From a virus: 64,000 bases of DNA. Below, one piece after another: positions 1,347-52,869 of the stretch (the stretch's first letter is position 1; each line of letters starts with the position of its first letter). The notes under the pieces were generated by a model. It was not told the DNA's origin, searched no databases, and was given only the letters and a program-made list of their open reading frames with translations. A program made the position numbers and the translations under genes. The stretch lies in the IMG/VR virus record IMGVR_UViG_3300045988_012220, positions 1 to 64,000 of that record. The stretch is one strand, 5' to 3'.

Positions 1347-2009
1347 TTAAGCTGCCATTCGCATATTATTTGCGTTTGGCAACAGGATTCGTCCCGTCTT
1401 CTTGCGATGGTCTTTAAGGTTTGTACAAATAAGATTACTGCGCTTTGCTTTTACCTTATTTGTCTCCTTACGAGCCATCTTGATGACTTTACTGCTCTCT
1501 GGAAGATTGTTTACTCCTCCATGTTTAGCAGTTTCGCCATTGTCTTTTATCTGAGCAATTTCTTGCTCGTGGAACAGCTCGTTAGCAGAAGAAAATCTAC
1601 CAATAAGCTGTAATTTGTCATATTTAGCGACAACTAAGTCTCTAATATGTTCTTCTGCGGCATTCTTTTCAGCCTCCCAAACCGGGAACTGCTGCGCGTA
1701 GAACAAATCGTCTTTCTTGACTGGGCATGGGTGCTTTCGCTCCCACTTCTGCAGCTTGTGTTGAACATATCCTTCCATGAGCTCGATGCGGTTAAGCTTC
1801 GTAACCTTTCTGCGAGATTCAATCTTAACTGAATTACGCTTGAGCAGTATGAACCAAGGTTTCTTTCGAGAAAGACCGTGGATACCATGTTCTTTACAGA
1901 ACTTAGAAGTAGTTCCGTGAGACTTGTTAAAGTCCTTAAGCCACTTCTCTTTAGTGTCACGATAAGTTTCAACATAATCGTCCAAATATTGATTATTCTG
2001 GGTATTCAT
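1347..2009 (-). CDS. hypothetical protein
   Basis: ORF track, 220 aa, TAA stop, co-directional minus-strand block. Confidence 0.7.
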   Translation of the reverse strand: MNTQNNQYLDDYVETYRDTKEKWLKDFNKSHGTTSKFCKEHGIHGLSRKKPWFILLKRNSVKIESRRKVTKLNRIELMEGYVQHKLQKWERKHPCPVKKDDLFYAQQFPVWEAEKNAAEEHIRDLVVAKYDKLQLIGRFSSANELFHEQEIAQIKDNGETAKHGGVNNLPESSKVIKMARKETNKVKAKRSNLICTNLKDHRKKTGRILLPNANNMRMAA

Positions 2010-2026
2010 AACGTTGTCTCCTATAA

Positions 2027-3016
2027 TTAAGCTGCCTGTTTAACTGACTTTTGTTTAACTTCCTTAACCTGTGTAGGCTTCTTGTTTACAGCCTTAGCCT
2101 TAACCTTAAGCCCACGACGAAGCTTACGTCCCTCAGCCTTAGAGCCGTGACGGAAGTTGTACGTGTTCTTCTCAAGTGTCTCCTTAGCCTTTTTCTTAGC
2201 TCTACGGAGATTATAGAAGTTAACACTAGCATTCTTAGAACACTCGATGGTATGAGGATCGCCTCCCTTCTTGTGCTTGTTGTGGTTACTTGCAGATACT
2301 TCAATACCAGCCTCCTCGAATGGAGACTTGTTATCAGAACGATACTGATAGAACGTAGCGTTACCTACAAGGTCACGCAGCTTCTCTACTACGTTTGCTG
2401 GTACATCCTTAAAGAATGCTGTAGAATTGGTGATGCACGCGGACTTAATTCCGCAGTCTTTGACCAACTTCTCGAGCTCTCCCTTCTTCTTCAGAACGGA
2501 GTCGCACACAACTGTTATATTGTATACAGTAGCGTTGTCCCACTGTTTCTTCGCGATGTCTACCACCTTCTTGGTGTCAGCATCATTGAGATGCATTCGC
2601 TTGCATCGACGGGTAATTGATGCAATATGACGAGCCTGAGCGACATTGCGACGCTCTTCCTGCTTCTTCAAACGCTCCTCCAGAGTGATTTTAACAGGCC
2701 CTGAAGCCTTTGTCTTCTTGGAGTCGATCAACTTATCCATGATGCTCTTCTTACGCGCCTGACGAGCCTCTGCGCGAGCCTTAGAGGCAGCATACTTAGC
2801 CTCTTCCTTCTCGGCCTTAGCCTTCTTTTTAGCTGCCTTGAGTTCAGCATGCTTCTTAGCCTTCTCTGCATCAGCAGCACGACGCTTCTTGATGTTCTCT
2901 ATTGTCTTATTAGCAGCCTTAGACTCTTCCTTCTTAGCTGCCTCAGCCTTAACTGGTGTAGTTCCTATCTTAGCCTGAACCTTCTTGAGGTTCTTCTTAT
3001 TATTTTTCTTAGACAT
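2027..3016 (-). CDS. hypothetical protein with Lys/Ala/Glu-rich basic N-terminal half
   Basis: ORF track, 329 aa. The first ~100 residues are KKAKAEKEEAK-type low complexity. TAA stop. Confidence 0.75.
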   Translation of the reverse strand: MSKKNNKKNLKKVQAKIGTTPVKAEAAKKEESKAANKTIENIKKRRAADAEKAKKHAELKAAKKKAKAEKEEAKYAASKARAEARQARKKSIMDKLIDSKKTKASGPVKITLEERLKKQEERRNVAQARHIASITRRCKRMHLNDADTKKVVDIAKKQWDNATVYNITVVCDSVLKKKGELEKLVKDCGIKSACITNSTAFFKDVPANVVEKLRDLVGNATFYQYRSDNKSPFEEAGIEVSASNHNKHKKGGDPHTIECSKNASVNFYNLRRAKKKAKETLEKNTYNFRHGSKAEGRKLRRGLKVKAKAVNKKPTQVKEVKQKSVKQAA

Positions 3017-11406: not shown

Positions 11407-11559
11407 TCTTCTCTCCACTTAGGTAGGAACCACCTAGACTAAACTTACGCTACGCAAGTATAGTCTACAATGTTATTTACATTGTCGTTTAATTTATAGT
11501 ATAGTGCTTAATGTATTTATCTCCTCTGTCTGTCAAAACCAAACACGCCCGTGTAGGCA

Positions 11560-11663
11560 GTTTTACAACATGCCTAGGTTGCCCACGGTCTATTCGCGAA
11601 CGAATCCGTGCTCTGGGATACGTCAACATAGATAGTTTTACAACATATCCAGGTTGCCAAAAC
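11560..11663. repeat. two copies of a hairpin with conserved 11-nt loop GTTTTACAACA followed by AGGTTGCC
   Basis: GGCA-GTTTTACAACA-TGCC-TAGGTTGCC (about 11566-11585) and GATA-GTTTTACAACA-TATC-CAGGTTGCC (about 11632-11658). The stems co-vary. A third loop-like copy lies at 5960-5970. Confidence 0.5.
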
Positions 11664-11690
11664 GAAATCTAAGCGTAGTGGGGAGGAACG

Positions 11691-11719
11691 TGGACGTGAG
11701 CGGAGTCGAACCGCTGTCC
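11691..11719 (-). ncRNA. T-arm minihelix (tRNA 3-prime-half-like)
   Basis: Minus strand GGAC-AGCGG-TTCGACT-CCGCT-CAC-GTCC-A. I found no matching 5-prime acceptor, D or anticodon arms upstream. Confidence 0.4.
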
Positions 11720-11903
11720 AAACAGATTGTTTCATACACACTGTACATTCTTTGTAAATGTTCCGATGATCAGTCAGAACATTCGATTTAAGCCACTTTA
11801 GAGTCGTTCTAAGGCGCTTTCAGCAGCATCGCGGTTAATTACTCCACTTATCTCCTACGGCGCCTCAGAACGCATTAAAACATGGCTAAAAATATATAGG
11901 AAT

Positions 11904-19029: not shown

Positions 19030-19107
19030 TAGGGTTCAAAAGAATCTATTTCCGAGTAATGAATCAGACTACACATTGATGCAAGTGTAGTTTCGTCTAG
19101 GTCTCAT

Positions 19108-19276
19108 CAGTGACTATATTATACACTCCCTAGCTGTGTTTAAAATGCCTGTCTTTCCAGGCTGCCAGTTGTTTATCCAACAGTCAACACTTATGGGACG
19201 ACTTACTGCCCACTATCAGCTAACTATATCTTATATGCATCAGTTGTATCGCTCATTTCTTCGAGTCGGGCTGATT
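19108..19276 (-). ncRNA. group I intron-like core signature (weaker candidate)
   Basis: Minus strand has hairpin GGGCAGTAAGTCGTCCC (compare the MCP intron CCC..TTTAAGTCGTGGG), R-like GTGTTGACTGTTGG and S-like TAATATAGTCACTG, with TGACTG/TAGTCA pairing. The element order differs from the MCP intron. Confidence 0.3.
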
Positions 19277-27504: not shown

Positions 27505-27578
27505 AGTCTATTAGTCAAACGGTAAAGACAGCCCGATATAAAGGGAATAGTTAGCAGGTTCGACTCCTGCATAGACTC
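27505..27578 (+). tRNA. tRNA-like gene with canonical acceptor and T arm but a 3-bp anticodon stem and 8-nt loop GATATAAA (anticodon unresolved)
   Basis: AGTCTAT-TA-GTC(A)-..GG..-GAC-A-(G)CCC-GATATAAA-GGG(A)-..-GCAGG-TTCGACT-CCTGC-ATAGACT-C. Confidence 0.5.
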
Positions 27579-27728: not shown

Positions 27729-27799
27729 CGCGGGATGGTGAAATGGTATCACGTGTGGCTCATAACCATAGATTGCTAGTTCGACTCTAGCTCCCGCAA
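27729..27799 (+). tRNA. tRNA-Met (anticodon CAU) with C1.A72 mismatch
   Basis: CGCGGGA-TG-GTGA-AATGGTA-TCAC-G-TGTGG-CTCATAA-CCATA-GATT-GCTAG-TTCGACT-CTAGC-TCCCGCA-A. Initiator, elongator or Ile2 identity is not resolvable by eye. Confidence 0.85.
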
Positions 27800-27952
27800 C
27801 ACTGAGCTTCGATAGTGTGGTGTTCTACATATTTGGCCACCAGAAGCGAAATTGATATCAGAAAAATATGTCGGCTACAATGGTTTGAAGTGTAGCAATG
27901 TAGTTTTAGGCAGATAAAAAGCTCGATAGCCTAAGGTGAGCTTCTACAATAT

Positions 27953-28025
27953 TGCCCTATGGTGTACCGCCTGTGCACAACTGTCCCTAAAACAGTAGGT
28001 CTCCGATGGACACGGAGTGGGGCTA
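27953..28025 (+). tRNA. amber suppressor tRNA (anticodon CUA), non-canonical D and T loops
   Basis: TGCCCTA-TG-GTGT-ACCGCCTGT-GCAC-A-ACTGT-CCCTAAA-ACAGT-AGGT-CTCCG-ATGGACA-CGGAG-TGGGGCT-A. Perfect 5-bp anticodon stem with CTA at 27987-27989. C33 replaces U33. The D loop lacks GG and the T loop lacks TTC. Confidence 0.75.
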
Positions 28026-28069
28026 CTAATAAATACGTAGGTTAGAGGTGCGTATTAAATATATTCTAT

Positions 28070-28477
28070 ATGAAAACTAAAATATGCACTAAATGCGGTA
28101 TAGAAAAACCGCTTGATCAGTTTGTGAAGAATAGTAGCAAACCTGATGGCCTATCTCCCCAATGCAAGGAGTGTAAACATAAATATTATGAAGAGTATTA
28201 TAAGAAACATAAGAAAGAAATATATAAAAAGCATAAAGAGCGTAAGAATTTTTTAACACAGTATATGAGACAATTAAAATCAGAAGGCTGTATTATATGC
28301 GGAGAAAAAGATCAAGCGTGCTTGGACTTTCATCATCTTCATGATAAATCTTTTAACATAGGTAATCAATGTAGAGACAGAGGTGTCAACTCTATAAAGA
28401 AAGAAGTTGATAAATGTGTTGTATTGTGCGCGAATTGCCACAGAAAACTTCATTTTTACAATTTTACAATTGATTAG
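28070..28477 (+). CDS. HNH endonuclease
   Basis: ORF track, 135 aa. CTKCG...CKEC zinc knuckle, DFHHLHDKSFN...VVLCANCHRKLH HNH core. Confidence 0.85.
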   Translation: MKTKICTKCGIEKPLDQFVKNSSKPDGLSPQCKECKHKYYEEYYKKHKKEIYKKHKERKNFLTQYMRQLKSEGCIICGEKDQACLDFHHLHDKSFNIGNQCRDRGVNSIKKEVDKCVVLCANCHRKLHFYNFTID

Positions 28478-28497
28478 CTAAAAGATTATGTTTAGTC

Positions 28498-28522
28498 TGG
28501 GTTCGAATCCTAGTGGGGTAAC
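28498..28522 (+). other. orphan canonical T arm plus acceptor 3-prime strand (duplicate of the suppressor tRNA 3-prime half)
   Basis: CTGGG-TTCGAAT-CCTAG-TGGGGTA-A. The acceptor strand pairs with the suppressor 5-prime strand TGCCCTA (7 bp, 2 G.U). Lies 20 nt after the HNH stop. Confidence 0.5.
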
Positions 28523-28547
28523 AATAACAAACAATATTATAAATACT

Positions 28548-29093
28548 ATGGAGTTAAAATTTAAGAGACTTGAGGACGAAGCGGTCCTCCCTATTCGTAG
28601 CACAGAAGGTGCTGCAGGAATTGATTTGACATGCATTAAGATTGATACAGCTCTTAATGAAGCAAATCAGCTAATGTTGGTTTACCATACAGGATTGGCA
28701 GTTGAGATTCCTGCCGGATATGTTGGTTTACTTATACCACGCTCTAGTATTTGGAAGAAATCATTATGGCTTACTGATAATGTTGGAGTGATTGACGCTG
28801 ATTATAGAGGAGAGATTATAGCTATAATGAAAGCCACAACAGATGTGGTTCCTGCTATTTATAAGCAGGGCGAGCGCTTCTGTCAGTTGGTCATAGTTCC
28901 GGTGCCAGAATACGAGGTTACAGAAGTGTCTGAGCTTTCTGATACAAAACGAGGCGAGAATGGTTTTGGTTCAACTGGTACCGATAATAAGGAAGTTAGC
29001 GCAGCTGCGGGAACTGAGGCACAGGCTAGCGAACAGCCACAGTCCGTACCAGAGCAAGCGGCGGCACAAGATGGTGCTGAGGTAGGTGAGTGA
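28548..29093 (+). CDS. dut: dUTP diphosphatase (dUTPase) with Ala/Gln/Glu-rich C-terminal tail
   Basis: MELKFKRL...AAGIDL...PRSS...GVIDADYRGEI...RFCQLVI...RGENGFGSTG are the classic trimeric dUTPase motifs. Start set at the ATG at 28548, in frame with track ORF 28488..29093. Confidence 0.9.
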   Translation: MELKFKRLEDEAVLPIRSTEGAAGIDLTCIKIDTALNEANQLMLVYHTGLAVEIPAGYVGLLIPRSSIWKKSLWLTDNVGVIDADYRGEIIAIMKATTDVVPAIYKQGERFCQLVIVPVPEYEVTEVSELSDTKRGENGFGSTGTDNKEVSAAAGTEAQASEQPQSVPEQAAAQDGAEVGE

Positions 29094-29179: not shown

Positions 29180-31048
29180 ATGAATTTTAAGAAACAACCA
29201 TTAAAAGGTGTAGAAATACATGGCGCTCCACAAGTTGGTACGCGTACAGTAAATATCTTAATGGGCGAACACGCAAACGAATTTGTCCGTGGTGATATTA
29301 TGGATGCTAATGCAGTATTGCAGGCATTTGATGAGCTTAAGGGTAATGTTGATACAGATCACGATACTCTTGAAGAGCTTGTTAATGAAATCCATAAAAA
29401 TGCTAATAACATTAGCAATAATAGCACATAGATACAAAAAGTTGATGCAGCATCAAAGGCTAGAGACGAAAAGGAGAAAAACGATAGAACTGAAGCTGAC
29501 AACGCTCTCGGTCATAGAATTGATTAGGAGGCAGCTGCTCGTAAAGCAGCAGATGCAGCAGAGTTATCTAGAGCAACATAGGAAGAGGCTAGACTTGACG
29601 CAGCAATTAAAGCTGAGGCTAATACTAGAAAGCTTAACGATGATACTATTACAAGTGCGTTAAATGCAGAGATTGCCCGTGCAAAGGCTGCTGAGAAAGA
29701 TAACAGTAACTCAATCACAGCTGAGGCTGCTACAAGAAAGTCAGAAGATGATGCTATTAAGGGTCTTCTTCAGAACGAAGTTACTAGAGCTACAACCGCA
29801 GAAGCAACGCTTCAGAGTAATATAGATAGAGAAGCTGAAGAAAGAAAGGCAAGCGATAGCACCATAACAACTAACCTTGACAATGAAATAGCAAGGGCAA
29901 AGGCTGCCGAAAGAGACAACAATAACTCGATTACAGCAGAAGCCGCTACAAGAAAATCTGAGGATGATGCTATTAAGAATTCACTTCATAATGAGGTAAC
30001 TAGAGCCACTGCTGCAGAGGCAACCCTTTAGGGAAATATAGATAGAGAGGCTACAGAAAGAAAGAATAGTGATAAAACCATTACAACTAATCTGAATAAT
30101 GAAATAGCAAGAGCTAAAGCTGCTGAAAAAGATAACAAAGACAGAATTGATGTACTTGATGGAGATTCTAACACGGAAGGATCTTATAGAAAAGCTATTA
30201 AAGATCTTATCAACGGTGCCCCAGAAGCATATGATACCCTTAAAGAAATTGCTGACAAGCTTGAAGAAAATGATGATCTTAATCAGGCGATTAATGAAGC
30301 TATTGCCACAAAAGCATCTAAGGAAGAACTTAAAGCAGAGTCTGACAGAGCTAAAGGAGCAGAAGCTGATAATGCTGCTGCAATAACGGCAGAGAAGACT
30401 AGAGCTGAACAGGCAGAAAGTGATATCACTTCAAACCTCAACAAAGAGATAGATAGAGCTAAGAAGGCAGAGCAGGCTAACACCGCAGCTATTACAAGTG
30501 AGGTAACAAGGGCAACCGCTAAAGAGGAAGAGTTGGCTAATTCTATTACTGCAGAATCAAATAGAGCAAAGGCTGCTGAAGCTGATAATGCTACCGCAAT
30601 AACAGCCGAAAAAAACAGAGCTACATAGGCGGAGAGCGATATTGTCTCAAACCTTAATAAAGAGATAGATAGGGCAAAGAAGGCGGAACAGGCTAACTCT
30701 ACTGCTATAACAAGCGAGGTAACCAGAGCTACAGCTAAAGAGGAAGAACTGTCTAATTCTATTACCGCTGAAGCTAATACGGCTAGAGCTGCAGAAAAGG
30801 CAAACACAGATAAGATTAATACAGAAATTCAGGATAGAAAGAATGCCGATGCAACTCTTAATAGCGCAATTAATAAGGAGATAACAGATAGAACTGCTGC
30901 TATTTCTAATACAACAACAACTCTGAATAATAGTATTAATGAGGTTAGTACAAATCTTACAAACCTCACAACTACCGTAAACAACATTAGCGCAACTGTA
31001 TCGAATATTACAGCAATTACTACAGATTATATTAACGAATTAAGCTAA
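29180..31048 (+). CDS. tail fibre / coiled-coil repeat protein, 622 aa, at least 5 in-frame TAG
   Basis: Own reconstruction from the ATG at 29180 to the TAA at 31046. Contains two pairs of 72-aa (216-nt) repeats (..ITAEAATRKSEDDAIK..EVTRAT.AEATLQ.NIDREA.. and ..AITAEK.RA.QAESDI.SNLNKEIDRAKKAEQAN..). Confidence 0.8.
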
Positions 31049-34796: not shown

Positions 34797-37577
34797 ATGA
34801 CTGAATTACTATCATAGAATGATTAGGTTATCGAGAAGAAACCAAATCCAATCGAAGAGCTTAATACAACGATGGCTTAGTATTATTCTGTATTACATTC
34901 TAAGATTTATAATCACGAGAGTAATACTGATATACACGTAACTTCAGATGATAAAAACACCTGGAATAATAAAGCCAATTAGTCTGATTTAGAATCTGTT
35001 AAAGAATATGCTGATAGTTTAAAGTAGTCTTTAGATAAAGTTAAGCCAGATATAATTAAGGAAGTCGAGACTATGATAGATAATAGTAAAGACATTAATT
35101 TATCTGACTACGCCACAAAGGTTTATGTAGACGCTTAGATTGATGCGCTTAATATAAGTGATGACATTGCTACAAAAACATGGGTGTCAAATAACTTTGT
35201 AAACTCTACAAATTATCAAAGATTTGATTCTACAAAGTATTATACAAAAGATGAAATTGATAATAAAATTGCAGGAGCAAATGTAGATAACTATCAGATA
35301 ACGGAATTTAGTTTGGCTAATAACTATCTTAACCTTACATAGAACAACGGTATATCAACACAGGTAAAACTGTCTGATGTATCTGGTGGAGCAATAACTA
35401 GCGATAATTTGGATAGAAAGCTATAGGACTATTTAAAGATATCTGCTATAGGAAACATTACGTTTACTAGAGGAGGAAGAATAGTTACGACATGGAATCC
35501 TGCTGCAGAAAATGCCACCGTGGAACTTTCTGGAGGAAGTGGATCAGATTCTTAGAGTGGAGGATATTATAAACCATACTTTAAGAATTATCCGTCAGAT
35601 GACAGCTTACCTACATCACAATTACCTGTAGTTGGATAGGATCCAGTAAATGCAGGATGGAGCTCTGTTAACGTAAACCCAGAACAAGGATACTTTACAT
35701 GGGAGATATGGGTATACATTAAAACCGGTGGTGGCTTTGGTGATATCATTGGTCCAGTTTGTATTTCTGGAAAAGACGGAGACAATGGCTCAGATGCTAC
35801 TGGAAAAGAATATATATATCAGCTAAATAATAATCAACCTACAAAGCCAACAATAAAACCAGCGTGGGGCGATGTTCCAGCTGGGTGGACTGATAATCCT
35901 ACAGGTATAGATTCTACTCATCGTGCAGAATGGATGATGTATAGAACATAGGACCCAGATGGAGTTATAAGTGATTGGCTTCCAGCTAAGGGCCCTGTAA
36001 TTTGGGCTCATTGGGGTAAAGATGGAACAGATGGTGATGGTGTGCAATATATATTCTGTGCTTTAAAACCTGGTGAAACAACAGCTGTATTTACAGGCGT
36101 AAATGATCCTACATCGTGGACAAATGATTCTGGCTTTTAGAATGGAAAAGCTGGAGAATACATTAAACCAGGATCTAGATGGACAGATAACCCAATAGAT
36201 ATTAAAACAGCAGTTGGTTATGGTTAGGGATCAAGCTAGTATGTAAGCATAAGAAGATATAGAGGATCTACAGGAAGTGCTGAAGATAATGACGGAAAGT
36301 GGCTGACATATAGCGAGCCTAGCTTGTGGACATACATGGCAAAGGATGGAGAAAGCTCCTCCCAGACATTAAAAGGATCGCCTTTAAGAAATAGAGGTGT
36401 ATGGCAGACTGGTGTACAATATTTTGATGGTACAACCTAGTCTGATGGAGGATTGTTTTATTAGGACTTTGTATCATACACTCATTCTGTAGTAGCTGAT
36501 GGAGCATCTAAGAATGTTACAGATTTCTACGTTTGCAAAAAACAGTGTGCAAGTATTGTCCCTACAAATACTGATTATTGGGATAAGCTTAGTGATATGG
36601 GTCCAATATACACTGACGTCCTTGTCGCTATGAAAGCATACATAAAAGAGCTTACAGCAGAAGAAGTTATAATCACAGATAACGAGAACATCGTAGCTGG
36701 TATGACTTCTGGCAATTCTGACAAAGTTTCATCTCAGGGCAATGTGAGAATATGGGCCGGCACAAATGATAAAAATGCTAGCAATATAGCTGAAGCTCCA
36801 TTTACTGTTACAGATAAAGGTGTATTAACATGTAGAGGAAACTATGGGAATATTATATTAAAAGACGGTACGATTTATTTCATAGTCGGCGGAGTAGAAT
36901 ATAAGTTAGGTATAACTAATGGCAAGCCAGATTGGATTAATAGTGCTGGAGCTGATTCAGTTGAACAATGGTATACTAAGGTTGAAACAGAGCACAACGT
37001 TTCATTTAGCGCTATTGATTCTTTTAGCATTAAAGACAACATTTATTATACAAGTGGTACAATGTCAGATATGGTAAATGGTACATATTATAAACGCGCA
37101 TCAAAAATAACGTGTTTGTACAATATTAGCGAGGGTGTTGTATTTACATTTAAAGACACATTTGGAATAGATATATATATCAAAGCAACATTTTCTAATG
37201 GTATTAAAGCAGTAGAAGGTGCAGTTGCTATCAGTGGATATGCTACTACAACGTCTACACCTACTTAGGACATTCCTGGAAAAATAAATATAGATACAAC
37301 TAGCAAATAGTGGTGTTCTATAGAGAAAGAAAGCAAGGATAGTTTGCCAAGTATGTATTATACAAAGGATACTCCTGTAGGTAAATTACACGAAGCTAGT
37401 TATCGTTCAGTTGATGATAGAAATATTACATATGGAAGTGGTACAGAAGATGGTATATATGTAATAAAGCCAGCGCCAAAAGAAACTGTAAGCACAGATA
37501 GAAAAATATCAATATTTGTCGACGAGTCTTCTGAGTAGAATGTATTTAAACCAACAGTAACAACAGTATCATTATAA
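34797..37577 (+). CDS. large tail fibre / receptor-binding-type protein, 926 aa, at least 19 in-frame TAG
   Basis: Single frame from the ATG at 34797 through track ORFs 36597.. and 37344.. to the TAA at 37575. Repeated GKDG.DG...W.DNP segments are typical of phage fibres. Confidence 0.8.
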
Positions 37578-40155: not shown

Positions 40156-42639
40156 ATGGAAGATAACTTATACAATTCAGCTTTCCCCAGACAAAAGCTC
40201 CCTCTTTCAAAGAAAGGAAAGAAGTGGCAAGAAGACTGCGTTAACTATATTATAGGTGAAGGTAACGTAACGTCTGGAGGAAATAGTACATCATATTACG
40301 GAGAGCTGTAGACCTATTATAACTTATATAACAGCATCTTCGACGAGAAGGATTTTAAATCAATTACAAACCCATTCAAGGTCGAGGATGGTTTTCCTGC
40401 TACTCCTCACGACTTTAATATCATTAGACCTAAGGTAGATTTGCTTATAGGTGAGGAGACAAAGAGACCTCTTAATTTCAGAGTCATCAGAACTTCATAG
40501 GAGGCTACATCAGAAATGCAGGAGAAAGAGAAGTAGATGATTCTACAATACATAGAAGCAGCTATCACAGCCAGAATGAGTCCAGAAGAGGCCCAATAGT
40601 TTCAGGAGTAGCTACAGTCTGGAGAGGTTATGCCACCAGAGTAGATAGCTAAGTATATGGACAAAGACTATAAAGATATTGTAGAGAATACAGCGTATCA
40701 TACGCTTACATATCTGAGAGAGAAACTTGATCTTGACAATGAGTTTATCAAAGGCTGGAAAGATGGATTGATCTCAGGTAGAGAAATTTATTATGTTGGC
40801 GTACTTAATGCAGAGCCATATGTTGAAAGAGTTAATCCTATATACTTCTCTTATGACAAGAGCCCAGACTTGGAGTTTGTTGAGGATGGCTCATGGTGCT
40901 GTAGAAAGATGCGTATGCCTATTACTGAAGTATACGATAGATACTACGATAAGCTTGAAGAGAAAGATCTTGACAAGCTTGAGGAAATGATTGGTTCTAC
41001 TCCTGGTAGAAATCTTGGAGATAGAAGCCCTGTTGATATGGGTATACAATTACGCATATACGATAACCCTATATTCGAAGGAGCCGGTAAGTCCCTTGTA
41101 AACGTATGGCATTGTTGCTGGAAGTCTTTCAAGAAGATCTTCTACGTAACTACTACAGACGATGCAGGATAGCCTCAGATTAACATAGTTGATGAAACGT
41201 ATCAGCCTGTTGGTAATGAGATTAGTGTAGAACCAGATTGGATTGTAGAGGTATGGGAAGGATATAGAGCTGGTAGTGACTTGTACTTTGGTATACAGCC
41301 TATTGAATACCAGCACGTAAGTATTGATAACCCTAATAGCTAGAAGCTTCCTTATTGTGGAGCTATTTATAGTAACACAAATAGTAAGCCTAGATCATTG
41401 GTTAGTATTCTTAAGCCATTACAGTACATGTACATTGTATTGTGGTATAGACTTGAGTTAGCTATTGCTAGAGACAAGGGCAAGGTTGTTAATATGGATA
41501 TTACATAGATTCCTAAGTCTATGAATATTAGCCCTGCTAAGTGGATGCATTACTTGTCTAGCGTTGGCGTTAACTTCATTAACCCATACGAAGAAGGCTG
41601 GAATATCCCAGGAAGAGAAGGTGGTAAGCCTGCATAGTTCAATCAGATAACAGCTTTGGATCTTACAATGTCTAACGTCATAGCTGAGTATATACAGCTT
41701 ATGGACAAGATAGAGGAACTTGCTGGTACAATCTCTGGTATCACAGCACAGCGTGAAGGAGCTGTAAGTTCATCAGAAATGGTAGGCAATGTAGAGAGAT
41801 CAGTTGTACAGAGCTCCCATATTACAGAGCCATTATTCTGGGTTCACAACCAGTGTAAGCGAAGAGTACTTAACATGCTCCTTAATACAGCTAAGGGTGC
41901 TTGGGAAGAGACTGGCAAAAAGAAGCTCCAGTACATCTTTGACAATGGAGAAAGAGCATTCTTGGACATTACTCCTAAGTTCTACTATGAGGATATGGAT
42001 GTCTTTGTAAGTGATACATCTAAAGATCTTGAGAACATATAGAAGCTTCAGCAGCTTATACAGCCAGCTATGCAGAATGGTGCTAGCTTACTTGAAGCAG
42101 CAGAGATTCTTACAAACGATAACTTTAACATCATTAAGCAGAAGCTTAAGGATATGTAGACTAGACAGGAGCAGATGCAGCAACAGCAGCAAGAGGCAGA
42201 GGCTCAGCAGCAACAGCAGTTGCAGCAGATGCAGAATGAAGCTAAATAGCAGGAGCTTATGTTACAGGAAGCTCAGATGGATCTTCAGAGATATCAGATT
42301 GATCAAGATAATCAGACAAAGATAGCTGTAGCATAGATTAATGCTTATCGTGGAACTGAAGATATGGATCAAAACGATAATGGAGTACCCGACGTTGCAG
42401 AGCTTGGCAAACAGGCTCTTGAGCAGCAAAAGATTAATCAGGAGGCTTATAATAAGCGTTATGAAGCTAAGTAGAAGCGTGAGATAGAAGATTAGAAGAT
42501 CTAGCTTGAGAAGGATAAAATGAAGCATGAGACAGAGCTGTAGTCTCAAAAAGATAAAGCTGCGATGGAAAGGGAATAGCTTAAAGCTAGAACCGCCATC
42601 CGCAATAAAACGAATGCGGAAGCTGCTAGAGGTAAGTGA
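40156..42639 (+). CDS. portal protein, 827 aa, 19 in-frame TAG
   Basis: One frame from the ATG at 40156 through track ORFs 40657.. and 41656.. to the TGA at 42637. Position after TerL, large size, Gln-rich C-terminal coiled coil. Confidence 0.8.
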
Positions 42640-42641
42640 TT

Positions 42642-43664
42642 ATGAAGTTTGATAATAAGACATTTTAGCAGAAGTATGAGGCGTGGAAGAATGGCGCTGA
42701 TTACTGGAAGGATATTAGAGGAATAAACTTGGGTGGAGACGCCCAGGCTGAGGAACCTAGCCCAGAAGAGCAGTAGTAGATTGATTAGAATGTATAGTCT
42801 ATACTTAATGCTTATAATGAAGGTAAAGATGTTAATATAGCTGAAGATATTATTAAACCATTACCTTTTGATACTCCATTAAATGAAGAACATCCAATAC
42901 TGCACAAATACAAAGGAGGTAAAAATGATTCTATTAATACTTTTGTTAACAGAATGGGCCCTCTTGTAGGACAATAGTTAAATAGATACGGATATGGCGA
43001 TACTGCGTTTTACAATGTAATGCGTTAGCTTGCATATGAATCAAACTACGGAAGGTCAAGAGTCGCTAGACAATAGCATAATTATGGAGGAGTAGGATGG
43101 AACGGCAAGACTTACACTACATATAAGAGTGACGCAGATTTTGTTAAGGACTATGTGAGGCTTATGCATAATAGATACGGAGCTGCGCTTAGAGCCAAAT
43201 CTACATAGGATTATGCAAGAGCCCTCAAGCAGAAGGGATATTATACAGATTCTCTAGAGAATTATTCTAGAAACCTTCGAGGAATGGATAGTTTAGTAAA
43301 GGCGGCTCATTACCACAGGAATGCACATAAAGATGCTTACAATTATAATGTTAAGCTTGATGATCTTGTATAGGATTATGAAGACGCAAAGAATACTAGC
43401 CCTATAATTATTAATTCCCCTTCTACAAAGTAGCCTAGTACTGTCAGAGTAGATGTTCCAGCAACTTTACTTGGTCCTACTTAGGAAGAGATTAAGGCTT
43501 AGCAATAGCGCGATCTTGATAAGTATAAACAGTAGATGTATAATAATATAACATAGCCTTCACTTCCGAACATACTTGATCTACTTCCTTAGAATAACTT
43601 TGGTAAAGATTCTTATGGCTAGAAGTTCTGGTAGAGAAGAGGAAATAATCTTAAACTAATGTAA
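42642..43664 (+). CDS. virion protein with glucosaminidase (LytD/FlgJ-like) peptidoglycan hydrolase domain, 340 aa
   Basis: Own translation: ..LAYESNYGRSRVARQQHNYGGVGWNGKTYTTYKSDADFVKDYVRLMHNRY..AKST.DYARALKQKGYYTD, the glucosaminidase-family signature. Many in-frame TAG. TAA at 43662. Confidence 0.7.
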
Positions 43665-46844: not shown

Positions 46845-47864
46845 ATGAATAATTCAAGTTCTTTATTAAATAATCTTCAGCTCTACCGTGGTAAGCGTTT
46901 TGCTGACTTGGTAGACGAAAACATGATTGCTAATGCAATGCTTACAAAGCCTCATGAAGTAGCAGGCTTGTTGTCATTGGTTTTTGGTACAAAGGATGAT
47001 GGTATTTCAACTACCATCGACTTGTTAACTGGTGGTCTTGGTTCAACCATGACTATCGAAAACAGAGAGTATGAGTGGTCTGTAATGATTGATGCTGACC
47101 ACGCTGTTAATATCCGCTACGCTAAGTGGAATGGTAAGGAGATTACTCCTAAGTCAATTACAGATGGTTTGACTCCAGGTATTAACAATACTCCTATTTA
47201 TCTTGGTCTTGAGGAGAAGTTCTTCGGACCTGGAGCAATCCTTGCATTTGATAACATCAACTTCCAGGTACGTGTAAACGGTACTCCATACCAGGATGGT
47301 AGCACATGGGTATATGAGACATATGTAGCAGAAGGCTTCCAGGGTTCTTATATCCCTTGTGAGTATTTGCTTCCAGGTCGTCAGGTAGACCGTATCGGTT
47401 CTGCATACGAGGAGTACAGTGATGAGGCAGATATCATCAACTATCAGACTCCATTTAAGATGCGTAATAGCTTGATGACTATGCGTCTTACTTACGATAT
47501 CACAGGTGATGCTTACTCTACAGTATTGGCTATCGCTTTGACTGATCCTGAGACAGGTAAGAAGTCTTATTTGTGGTCTGACTATCAGTATTGGAAGGCT
47601 CTTCGTGAGTGGAAGAAGAGAGAGGAGAAGCAGTTGCTGTTCGCTCACTCTAACCGTAATGCAGATGGTACTTACAATTTGAAGGGTACTAATGGTCGGT
47701 TCGTTCCAATCTCTGCAGGTTTGTTCGAGCAGATTGCTCCAGCTAATGTACGTTACTACACCAAGCTGACTACAGAGTTGTTCGAGGATTACTTGTTCGA
47801 CCTCTGCTATAACATTATCGGTACTAACGAGCGTAAGTTCGTTGCTTTGACTGGTGAGATGGGT
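46845..47864 (+). CDS. major capsid protein, exon 1 (340 codons, no TAG)
   Basis: Track ORF 46845..47867. The TAA at 47865 is the first intron triplet. Ends ...ALTGEMG. Confidence 0.8.
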
Positions 47865-48135
47865 TAACTTTATAGCTCCCTGTAGCAGTAATGTTACTTG
47901 AAAATCTATTTAATTTCTGGGAAGCCCAAACGTTTAAGTCGTGGGTAATCAGAAGCGAAGTCTCGAAAGAGAAACGTTCAACGACTATCCGAAAGGAGTA
48001 GGGTTCAAGCGAACCCGAAATGATAGACATCCTAATTGGGATGAAGATATAGTCTGATCTCATATGAAAGTATGAGGGCTTTTAATGATCGCAATAAAGC
48101 CAATCTGTAGTAGCGATACAGGTTAAACATAAATG
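47865..48135 (+). ncRNA. group I self-splicing intron (ORF-less, 271 nt) in the MCP gene
   Basis: Classic core elements: Q-like TAATCAGAAGC, R GTTCAACGACTA (47976-47987), S AAGATATAGTC (48044-48054), with GACTA/TAGTC forming P7. GNRA/GAAA hairpins. The 5-prime exon ends in T and the intron ends in G at 48135. Splicing keeps the frame (GEMG|IREFDRILKE). Confidence 0.75.
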
Positions 48136-48648
48136 ATTAGAGAGTTCGATCGTATTTTGAAGGAGAAGGCAGCTAGCTTTAACATGATTGATACACACTT
48201 CATTACAGGTTCTGGTCAGGACTTGAAGTTGGGTGGTCAGTTCACAACTTACACTATGACCAATGGTATTGAGTTGACAGTTAAGCGTTGCGCTATGTTT
48301 GATAACATGGAGATGTTCCGTCAGCTTCATCCATTGACAGGTAAGCCATTGATGTCTTACACATTCTTGTTCGTTGACCTCGGTCGTCGTGACGGTCAGG
48401 CTAACATCGTTAAGGTATGTCGTAAGGGTCGTGAGTTCGTACAGTGGTGCACTGGTGGTTCTGTATTGCCAAATGGTTATGCAAACAACATCAACACTAT
48501 GCGTTCTAACAGCCGTGATGGTTACCAGGTACACTTCCTTGGTGAAGAGGGCATCATGTTGAGAAACCCATTGTCATGCGGTATCTTGTACTGTGATGCT
48601 GAAGACCAGGAGTCTATTGCAGTTGAGAACAGAGCAGCAGAGCTCTAA
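48136..48648 (+). CDS. major capsid protein, exon 2 (170 codons, no TAG)
   Basis: Track ORF 48133..48648. An in-frame TAA lies immediately upstream at 48130. Confidence 0.8.
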   Translation: MREFDRILKEKAASFNMIDTHFITGSGQDLKLGGQFTTYTMTNGIELTVKRCAMFDNMEMFRQLHPLTGKPLMSYTFLFVDLGRRDGQANIVKVCRKGREFVQWCTGGSVLPNGYANNINTMRSNSRDGYQVHFLGEEGIMLRNPLSCGILYCDAEDQESIAVENRAAEL

Positions 48649-49494: not shown

Positions 49495-50211
49495 ATGACG
49501 CACAGTGATATTTATACTAAGTTTATGATTGAATATGACAAGGCAAATATAACTTCGTCATATCCGTCGCTAACTGAATATGAAATTGCAACAATATTAG
49601 ATAAAGCATACTTAGCTTTAATAGCTCAAAAATTAACAGGGAACAACCCAAGAAGATCTGCTTTTGAATCTGATGTTAAAGCAATTGAAGATTTAAGACC
49701 ACTAATAAAACAAGCTTTATTGCATGGAGAACATAGCAATGTTGTTACAAATGAATATATTTATTCATTAAACATACAAGATTATCTGTATTACGTTTCT
49801 AGTACAATATCATTAAATGCTAATAATAGTTCTATAGATGATCAGAAACATATAATTCAGTCAGTAGATCTCATATCTCACGACAATGCAAATAAGTTCA
49901 AGTCTACATCAACTAATTTACCTTGGGTTAAGAATCCTGTATGCTATATAAATGATAAGCTTATACACGTTTTAATTGACCCGTATGACGTTAAAAATAA
50001 CAAAGGTGATATGGTGTTAGGCTTAACATATATAAAGTCTCCTGCTAAATTTGTAAAAGGGACAAGTTTGGTTGATTTTGGAGATACTGAATTAGAGATA
50101 AACGACACCGTGGCTGAAGAGCTTGTTAATTTAGCAATTATAATGTCTACTGAGATTGTCGAATCCAGTAGATTATCTACTAAAACAAATACTAGACCAC
50201 TAGAATCATGA
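49495..50211 (+). CDS. hypothetical structural-module protein (no TAG)
   Basis: ORF track, 238 aa. Confidence 0.8.
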   Translation: MTHSDIYTKFMIEYDKANITSSYPSLTEYEIATILDKAYLALIAQKLTGNNPRRSAFESDVKAIEDLRPLIKQALLHGEHSNVVTNEYIYSLNIQDYLYYVSSTISLNANNSSIDDQKHIIQSVDLISHDNANKFKSTSTNLPWVKNPVCYINDKLIHVLIDPYDVKNNKGDMVLGLTYIKSPAKFVKGTSLVDFGDTELEINDTVAEELVNLAIIMSTEIVESSRLSTKTNTRPLES

Positions 50212-51744: not shown

Positions 51745-52869
51745 ATGATTACATATGTAAATACCGTATTGGTATCAAATAATGGTGGTGATACACTCGC
51801 TACAAAGGAAGAGCTTGCAGGCAAGCAGAAGAAGGGTGATCTCAAAGAGTTGGTTGGTAAGCTCGTATTTATGAATTGCGACCCAGCTGCTCAGGATGGT
51901 TCAAACATTGAGGATATTTATGCAGTTGATGAGAACTGTGATAGATTTAAGATTGGCGTTGTAACTAGTGATAGTTTCCAGAAGGCTGATAAGATGGGTA
52001 ATGTAACATATATTCCTGTTGTTAAGTGGTCAAATATTATTAACGCAGCAGACATTAAGTCTATTACAAAGCTCGACTACAAGGACGATACAGAGGATAC
52101 AATCTCAATTGACTTCTCTACAATTCCTGCAGAGACTTTAGATATCCTTTCAGCAGGTGGTTGCCCTGTAGTACTTCGTCTTACTTTTAAGGATATGCCT
52201 ATGCGCTATCGTAAGTGGACTGAGTCTTATAGCTACGTAACAATGCCTGGTGATGGTATTCAGAAGATTATGCAGGGTCTTGTTAAGGATATTGTACGTG
52301 CTTCAAAGCGTCAGCGTGTATACGCAAAGATCGATGGTACTAAGCTCGTTCTTGAGGCAATGAAGTACGATGATGATGAGCAGGCTGTAACAGAGAATGT
52401 TTATGCAAAGGTTCGCTTTGATGCAAATGCTTATTGGATGAATCCACAGGCTCCAGGTTGGGCAGCTAATAACAAGTATGATCTTGGTGTTAAGTTTGTT
52501 AAGCAGGAAGGTGTAACTTATCCTGCATCAGCAAAGCTTGTACGTGATCGCGAGCGTTCAGCATTTGATTATCAGGGTGTACTTCATCGTTGCTGCTGGT
52601 ATGATCCACAGCCTAACATGGTTACAAATATTGACAACCATTACGGGGGTATTACTATCGAGTTCGAGAACCAGTATCATACAGCTGATGATCTCTGGCG
52701 TAGAACAAAGCAGACAGTAGAAATTTATGCTTCTGACAACGGCACAGAAATTGGTGCCGCAGAGATTGGCAATGGCCTCTTGGCTAAATTGGGCAAGATG
52801 GTTGCTAATCGTCAGAACATCGCTAACCCAGTTAGCAATTCAACTGCGTACGACGGTACAAAGTATTAA
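51745..52869 (+). CDS. abundant-type structural protein (374 aa, no TAG)
   Basis: ORF track. Followed by a strong terminator. Confidence 0.8.
   Translation: MITYVNTVLVSNNGGDTLATKEELAGKQKKGDLKELVGKLVFMNCDPAAQDGSNIEDIYAVDENCDRFKIGVVTSDSFQKADKMGNVTYIPVVKWSNIINAADIKSITKLDYKDDTEDTISIDFSTIPAETLDILSAGGCPVVLRLTFKDMPMRYRKWTESYSYVTMPGDGIQKIMQGLVKDIVRASKRQRVYAKIDGTKLVLEAMKYDDDEQAVTENVYAKVRFDANAYWMNPQAPGWAANNKYDLGVKFVKQEGVTYPASAKLVRDRERSAFDYQGVLHRCCWYDPQPNMVTNIDNHYGGITIEFENQYHTADDLWRRTKQTVEIYASDNGTEIGAAEIGNGLLAKLGKMVANRQNIANPVSNSTAYDGTKY

Follow-up and report, generated by a model that had tools for sequence, protein, structure and literature searches.

Glutamine as the probable reading of in-frame TAG codons in the late genes of a crAss-like phage, with an altered candidate suppressor tRNA(CUA) at a homing-endonuclease locus

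Genetic code 15 was reportedly recognized among gut phages by Ivanova and colleagues in 2014. The use of TAG as a glutamine (Gln, Q) codon in the late genes of crAss-like phages, and the phage suppressor tRNAs associated with it, were described by Yutin et al. 2021 (PMC7886860); the same recoding was reported by Borges et al. 2021/2022 (bioRxiv 10.1101/2021.08.26.457843), who noted a 'missing suppressor' problem, and peptide mass spectrometry proved TAG=Gln in two crAss-like phages (Peters 2022, PMC9523058). Late-gene recoding of this kind is, in other words, already known and experimentally validated. Here we analyse a stretch of viral DNA of 64,000 nucleotides (nt; positions 1 to 64,000 of IMG/VR record IMGVR_UViG_3300045988_012220, hereafter the window), for which an original prediction, made from the letters of the sequence, had taken two pairs of repeats inside a fibre-like late gene as evidence that TAG stands for Gln. 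We put at roughly 93% the probability that the late block of this crAss-like phage reads TAG as Gln beside CAG and CAA, with a tRNA carrying a CUA anticodon, tRNA(CUA), encoded upstream. The internal-repeat argument is a new view of a known fact, from which nothing essential differs; what the window adds is a TAG-recoded phage whose candidate suppressor tRNA escapes both standard detectors, a concrete case of the 'missing suppressor' problem of Borges et al.

Like the phages of the code 15 papers, the window comes from a genome of ~100 kb in a lineage of Bacteroidota phages, has TAG codons in frame in its structural, packaging and lysis-region late genes and early genes that can be read in the standard code, encodes a candidate tRNA(CUA), and shows TAG aligned with Gln in homologues. 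It differs from them in having a non-canonical suppressor allele with a linked homing endonuclease; we did not find such an allele described in those papers. Sequence comparison places the window among the crAss-like phages (Crassvirales, Suoliviridae), close to Burzaovirus cr124_1. Over the aligned parts it has ~90% nucleotide identity by megablast to cr124_1 and cr7_1 (Burzaovirus, Oafivirinae, Suoliviridae; NC_055899, NC_055895), with a collinear gene order, 79-88 TAG codons at identical positions and the tRNA locus likewise upstream of the dUTPase gene. The genomes differ in that only 37.4 of the 64 kb align: the fibre gene and the gene after it are largely replaced, the window has a tRNA(CAT), an HNH gene and an altered suppressor in addition, and its capsid gene contains a group I intron that cr124_1 does not have. 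In the deposited cr124_1 annotation TAG is already treated as sense and the tRNA is labelled Gln.

TAG is a sense codon in the window. When it is read as one, coverage by open reading frames (ORFs) of at least 100 amino acids (aa) rises from 48% to 81%, a gain exceeding that obtained for TGA or TAA, and TerL, portal and other late genes, which are broken under code 11, are restored to full length. The recoding is concentrated in the late genes, whose identities were assigned by orthology to the annotated cr124_1. In the plus-strand late block of virion and packaging genes, TAG makes up ~1.7% of the codons and 34% of TAG, CAG and CAA taken together, and the genes stop at TAA (20) or TGA (9). 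The long minus-strand early genes (503, 329, 247 and 220 codons) contain no TAG at all.

The codons facing TAG in related genomes point to Gln. Opposite the TAGs of the window, cr124_1 has TAG in 79 cases, CAG in 18, CAA in 5 and any other codon in at most 4; in the reverse direction, the TAGs of cr124_1 face CAG 20 times and CAA 6 times. TGG, the other transition neighbour of TAG, stands opposite it in 3 and 1 cases in the two directions. For tblastn comparisons with three relatives, TAG was masked as X and codons were read directly off the DNA, because some database translations already assume Q at TAG. Gln codons were the leading non-TAG partner in all three relatives, accounting for 27 of 71 such partners in cr124_1 (79% protein identity), 22 of 73 in cr130_1 (55%) and 15 of 66 in a Bohxovirus (60%). 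Pairs of TAG with CAA, which lie two mutational steps apart, number 8, 13 and 7 in the three relatives (28 altogether), and in cr130_1 CAA is even more frequent than CAG opposite TAG (13 versus 9), so that mutational proximity is no explanation. In a likelihood test, each candidate amino acid was modelled by the substitution spectrum that these alignments themselves show; Gln was ahead of the runner-up by 94, 46 and 44 log units, one value per genome.

The portal protein gave the same answer over a greater distance. A HMMER search yielded 150 representatives (50%-cluster) of 30-63% identity, of which 135 full-length sequences were aligned with the TAGs of the window masked. At the 15 usable TAG columns the log-odds were +6.1 for Q, -0.9 for E, -1.9 for A, -3.0 for K and below -20 for Y, W and L, so that only Gln scored positive among these diverse homologues; as a control, Q, E, K, Y, W, L, S, R, N, D, T and A columns were put through the same test, which identified the right residue for each. 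A portal search that brought in proteins of 96-98% identity was set aside as circular, since these were already translated with TAG as Q. Judged on these alignments, Gln is by far the best assignment of TAG and the maximum-likelihood one in every test.

The original prediction was built on the fibre-like late gene, and the strings and coordinates it quoted were all exact on re-reading. Its description of two repeat pairs in register also agrees with both a repeat search of the window and a codon alignment: each pair is tandem, free of indels and in frame with the ORF, with a spacing of exactly 216 nt (Table 1). Codon by codon, CAG29813 in the first unit of pair 1 stands opposite TAG30029 in the second, and CAG30410 stands opposite TAG30626 in pair 2. 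Sister units diverge chiefly at the third position of the codon (9/7/34 at positions 1/2/3 in pair 1, 9/5/34 in pair 2). In frame, synonymous and non-synonymous codon changes are in the ratio of 27:12 and 27:11 for the two pairs, as against 5:38, 2:40, 3:36 and 1:38 in the other two plus frames. This bias persists 3' of the TAGs (18:4 after TAG30626, for instance), which argues that the fibre frame is under protein-level selection straight across them.

The synonymous bias was rejected as proof of the coding strand, as an antisense ORF (30283-30807), which has common wobble positions, scores similarly (25:13). The plus frame was chosen because the protein has 4587 homologues in databases, mostly on contigs of ~100 kb, and because the ORF is co-directional with the late operon. 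The protein matches phrog_13589 at 5e-34, and Pfam and PDB sequence searches with it gave no match; the label 'fibre' is putative and comes from the 'tail protein' annotation in cr7_1 and from resemblance in repeats and motifs. With TAG as Gln, the tryptic peptides spanning TAG codons of the fibre protein are predicted to include EATLQGNIDR and ATQAESDIVSNLNK.

Taken by themselves, the repeat pairs are modest evidence, and the Gln assignment that the original prediction drew from them is upheld by the independent tests given above. Only two sense codons, CAG and TGG, lead to TAG by a single transition, so CAG partners in both of two pairs are partly expected from mutation alone. The same columns in homologous fibre genes, which had been suggested as a check, turned out to be weakly informative: in repeat-unit profiles built with the Q/TAG column masked from 345-353 units of 120 homologous fibre proteins, both are variable family-wide, one showing K/N/A with 6% Q and the other A/Q/L with 22% Q. 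Close relatives are mixed and compatible with Gln. Position 84 of the fibre is TAG in the window and in both of its close relatives, L153 and L154 (3/3); position 134 reads TAG, TAG and CAG across these three genes, position 48 is CAG or TAG among close relatives, and two more TAGs of the L153 and L154 genes lie opposite AAG and AGA in the window. Reading the homologue columns from the top match per protein was rejected, because such alignments slip register in a repeat protein and the resulting counts are meaningless. The duplications in the fibre gene would merely have captured two synonymous CAG/TAG differences.

Just upstream of the late block lies a candidate CUA tRNA gene. At the same locus, directly 5' of the dUTPase gene, the genomes of cr124_1 and cr7_1 encode a tRNA(CUA) of canonical form, which is annotated as tRNA-Gln. 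Its D-arm 16-mer belongs to tRNA-Gln in 90 of 105 bacterial tRNA genes (one genome per species), and the matches include tRNA-Gln(UUG) of Prevotellaceae and Bacteroidales with the overall body in common; judged by these matches, the backbone of the phage tRNA(CUA) is typical of tRNA-Gln. In the window the candidate suppressor is followed by an HNH ORF and then by a remnant of the canonical gene (Table 1). The candidate is non-canonical: its D loop is without GG, it has C33, its T loop reads AUGGACA and it carries a U1-U72 mismatch. No CUA tRNA was called in the whole window by ARAGORN at default settings or by Rfam, and ARAGORN calls the contiguous 73-nt form tRNA(CUA) only at a relaxed threshold. 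These 73 nt nevertheless fold as a cloverleaf (-24.5 kcal/mol), and over the window, seven other alleles and tRNA-Gln genes 97.6% of the cells of the cloverleaf are paired and 14 pairs are compensated. The base changes that set the alternative T stem apart from the canonical one are compensated within their pairs, and the alternative acceptor end with its trailer (GTGGGGCTACTAATAAAT) is like the native end of the suppressor genes L136 and L138; in other suppressor genes the native 3' end and trailer read GTGGGGCTACTA(A/G)TAAAT.

Besides the window, 12 contigs carry this module of tRNA and HNH ORF, with several kinds of sequence around it, and the HNH ORF is absent from cr124_1 and cr7_1, which amounts to a presence/absence polymorphism at a conserved site. 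In nine alleles, the ~105 nt of tRNA and hairpin are invariant except for position 1 and one substitution, and the adjacent HNH ORF is variable at ~13% of its columns, some copies having a stop or a frameshift. The 29-nt remnant shows one change, C56T in lineage L011/L151; this single variable column compares with a neutral expectation of ~3.5, and the conservation of the remnant does not go beyond that expectation. Metagenome and IMG/VR scans for more alleles returned only eight loci, and because their tRNA part is uniform, no covariation test is possible within that allele.

From its sequence the HNH ORF would encode a free-standing homing endonuclease with predicted cleavage activity. Free-standing homing endonucleases of the T4 segB type spread by intronless homing near or within phage tRNA clusters. 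The locus in the window resembles that type in having an endonuclease ORF that is present or absent among close relatives, a co-converted flanking target and decayed copies of the ORF; it differs in that the target is the code-switch tRNA, and in that the incoming cassette appears to carry a replacement tRNA and to leave a 29-nt scar. We lean, with some reserve, towards a homing-endonuclease cassette that brought its own tRNA(CUA), overwrote the canonical gene and left the scar behind. Replacement by such a cassette would be why the detectors miss this suppressor tRNA, and aberrant replacement alleles of tRNA(CUA) would help to explain the ~60% of TAG-recoded phage genomes in which no suppressor is detected. 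The arrangement suggests that mobile endonucleases drive the turnover of code-switch tRNAs.

Other alleles of the locus show further variation. In L153 (2470-3350) there is a third tRNA(CUA) allele, again non-canonical, with a D loop without GG and a T loop reading TTTGATT, and the gene of a free-standing GIY-YIG endonuclease comes directly after it. The suppressor locus has the look of a homing-endonuclease hot spot. In two IMG/VR phages, L136 (~1554-2640, reverse strand) and L140 (1421-2500), an insertion of ~1 kb, nearly all of it HNH ORF, interrupts the tRNA(CUA) gene within the anticodon loop, following CTCT, and the two halves keep compensating anticodon-stem bases; neither an Rfam group I intron nor a contiguous alternative 3' half was found in these split genes, and no description of endonuclease-interrupted suppressor genes was found in the literature. 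The TAG that ends the HNH ORF of the window (28475-28477) is kept in most alleles and is CAG in L010, L150 and L152. With Gln at this TAG, the endonuclease would gain ~28 residues, and its product may depend on the state of the code.

The mechanism that we propose follows the published 'code 15' late-gene timer model. The early and replication genes (minus strand, 1-25.4 kb) would be readable in the standard code of the host. In the late block (plus strand, from 29.2 kb) TAG would serve as a Gln codon, with TAA and TGA staying stops, and the phage tRNA encoded just upstream, which combines a CUA anticodon with a tRNA-Gln-type body, would presumably be charged by the glutaminyl-tRNA synthetase (GlnRS) of the host. 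U35 and a weak 1-72 pair favour GlnRS, an enzyme that mischarges tRNAs with a CUA anticodon. Once accumulated, the tRNA(CUA) would outcompete release factor 1, and late proteins would be made at full length only after the code switch. In this scheme we infer the charging by GlnRS, the timing function and the identity of the active suppressor transcript at the tRNA locus. The classical amber suppressors of textbooks, such as E. coli supE, likewise have a CUA anticodon on a Gln-type body; the suppressor of the window differs from supE in being phage-encoded and, putatively, a regular decoder of ~1.7% of late codons rather than a leaky one.

We give almost no credence to the view that TAG is still a stop, be it that the fibre and other late genes each yield a series of short polypeptides ending at the TAGs, or that the genome is decaying and non-viable. 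It is true that the region splits into many ORFs under code 11 and that the GenBank record of Bohxovirus PV686213.1 is annotated with TAG as a stop. However, downstream of codon 41 the fibre ORF has no in-frame ATG or GTG at which later pieces could start, reading-frame selection runs on across its TAGs, and the single-chain TerL and portal, with their 10 and 19 TAGs, align end to end with full-length homologues; 79-88 TAG codons are kept in position between phages ~90% identical, and near-identical genomes recur in many samples. Separate polypeptides ending at the fibre TAGs, the outcome that the original prediction had named as speaking against its reading, thus find no support. A sense reading of TAG with a different amino acid (Glu, Lys, Tyr, Trp, Leu, Ser or pyrrolysine), or with ambiguous decoding, is also very improbable. 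In its favour, ARAGORN labels every CUA tRNA 'Pyl', and CAG/TAG pairs are partly what transition bias would give; against it, the tRNA body is of the Gln type, two-step TAG/CAA pairs are common and TGG partners are rare. E and K often face TAG, whose columns vary; both are also normal substitution partners of Gln. In each genome Gln is ahead of His, Glu and Lys by at least 44 to 94 log units, and Tyr codons almost never stand opposite TAG. Mass spectrometry in related phages gives Gln (PMC9523058). Several points do weigh against the Gln reading and its proposed decoder. Fibre position 116 is TAG in the window and GAA (Glu) in both L153 and L154; in the portal alignment conservation is lower at TAG columns (0.41 log-odds per column) than at ordinary Gln columns (1.18); in the alignments to the three relatives TAG-to-Q stands at 25-42% compared with 42-78% for Q-to-Q; the three genomes of the likelihood test share ancestry, so that a pooled figure of >200 overstates their independence; for this phage the assignment rests on sequence, the protein data being those of two other crAss-like phages; and the suppressor candidate, non-canonical and missed by standard tools, has a decoding activity that is putative. 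The lower conservation of TAG columns fits a spread of TAG at tolerant Gln sites.

A further alternative concerns the mechanism only, and we consider it unlikely, though a more serious contender than the two just discussed: the contiguous tRNA would not be the active suppressor, and either the insertion at 27997-28492 would be spliced out or the locus would be dead and an external or host suppressor would take its place. When the 5' part is joined in silico to the canonical 3' part, ARAGORN does report a tRNA(CUA) at default settings; all alleles keep the 3' remnant almost whole, with acceptor bases that pair with the variants at positions 1-2, and the split tRNA(CUA) genes of L136 and L140 have no contiguous alternative. 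Yet the remnant varies about as a neutral sequence might, the alternative 3' half and trailer are invariant and like the native ends of other suppressor genes, and the contiguous T stem departs from the canonical one by compensated pairs; the relative L153 places another non-canonical tRNA(CUA) directly before a free-standing endonuclease, and nowhere else in the cr124_1 genome is there a second suppressor. As an explanation of the interrupted tRNA gene, a group I intron was rejected: there is no match to Rfam RF00028 up to an E-value of 10 in 27940-28540, the insertion lies after the anticodon stem, and its non-coding part comes to only ~90 nt, the flanks of the HNH ORF (~75 and 15 nt) being too short for a catalytic core. 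Covariation between position 1 and position 72 of the remnant was likewise rejected as a sign of splicing, since homing events that hit different recipient alleles produce an identical pattern. We find it improbable that the decoder is made only after the ~0.5-kb HNH insertion is removed by non-group I splicing, with excision gating the late-code switch, and just as improbable the corollary that HNH-split suppressors, in the window and in the anticodon loop of L136 and L140, would stay functional. The contiguous tRNA brought in by a homing cassette remains our preferred account of the locus.

Table 1 Coordinates of the features discussed, in positions of the window
Feature	Position	Strand	Details
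Permuted tmRNA	11445-11750	-	Rfam 57 bits, also found by ARAGORN
RAGATH-1 hammerhead ribozyme match	19062-19140	-	early region; 78 bits (gathering score 56.3)
tRNA-like element	27505-27578		Rfam tRNA 37.9 bits
tRNA(CAT)	27729-27800
Candidate amber-suppressor tRNA	27953-28025	+	anticodon CTA 27987-27989; contiguous cloverleaf, non-canonical
5' acceptor strand, altered D arm, anticodon arm	27953-27996	+	CTA, loop CCCTAAA
Different variable loop, T arm, 3' acceptor strand	27997-28025	+	T loop ATGGACA; followed by conserved hairpin
HNH homing-endonuclease ORF (predicted)	28070-28477	+	135 aa, ends in TAG; phrog_2255 at 1.4e-32
Canonical suppressor tRNA remnant	28493-28521	+	29 nt: variable loop, T arm, 3' acceptor strand; identical to 3' end of cr124_1 tRNA(CUA)
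dUTPase	28548-29093	+	0 in-frame TAG; Pfam PF00692 at 1.7e-23; first gene after tRNA locus, directly 5' of fibre gene
Late block (virion and packaging genes)	29180-61398	+	167 in-frame TAGs in 9772 codons
Fibre-like gene (putative)	29180-31048	+	622 codons, 5 in-frame TAGs, TAA stop
In-frame TAGs of fibre ORF	29429, 29525, 29579, 30029, 30626	+
Repeat pair 1	29669-29884 / 29885-30100	+	two 216-nt (72-codon) units, 77% identity, no indels
Repeat pair 2	30330-30545 / 30546-30761	+	two 216-nt units, 78% identity, no indels
Gene 34797-37577	34797-37577	+	926 codons, 19 TAGs
Gene 42636-43664	42636-43664	+	342 codons, 19 TAGs
Portal	late block	+	19 TAGs
TerL	late block	+	10 TAGs
Major capsid exons	46845-47867, 48133-48648	+	0 TAGs
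Group I intron in capsid gene	47855-48076		Rfam RF00028, 93 bits; no ORF
Gene 49495-50211	49495-50211 (late block)		0 TAGs
Gene 51745-52869	51745-52869	+	374 codons, 0 TAGs

The late genes are uneven in their use of TAG: some are free of it (46845-48648, 49495-50211 and 51745-52869) and lie beside neighbours with up to 5.6 TAGs per 100 codons, which suggests that TAG is avoided in the most strongly expressed virion proteins. The group I intron splits the two capsid exons, and relative to cr124_1, where the gene is uninterrupted, the insertion spans ~47865-48141.

Upstream of the candidate suppressor, the tRNA-like element was not called by ARAGORN and is conserved in cr124_1, cr7_1 and L153. 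It has good acceptor, D and T arms, and its anticodon arm consists of a 3-bp stem and an 8-nt loop (CCC GATATAAA GGG). The tRNA(CAT) is present in the window and in L153 and absent at the same spot in cr124_1. The ~150 nt around it (CCAATACTGGTTCTGCGTAACTCCAG...) form a conserved duplicated motif found 5' of each tRNA in the locus, which may be a processing or structured element.

Annotation of the window needs TAG as Gln, since the standard code shatters the late genes, as it does in PV686213.1. In this Bohxovirus genome (L135, PV686213.1 20001-70000; 2025 GenBank), annotated with the standard code, the late region consists of dozens of 'hypothetical proteins' of 30-100 codons. The early region of the window contains a match to the RAGATH-1 hammerhead ribozyme, and the minus strand also encodes a permuted tmRNA that is annotated in cr124_1 and cr130_1 as well; as a ribosome-rescue RNA, it may be relevant to the code switch in a phage that recodes a stop codon.

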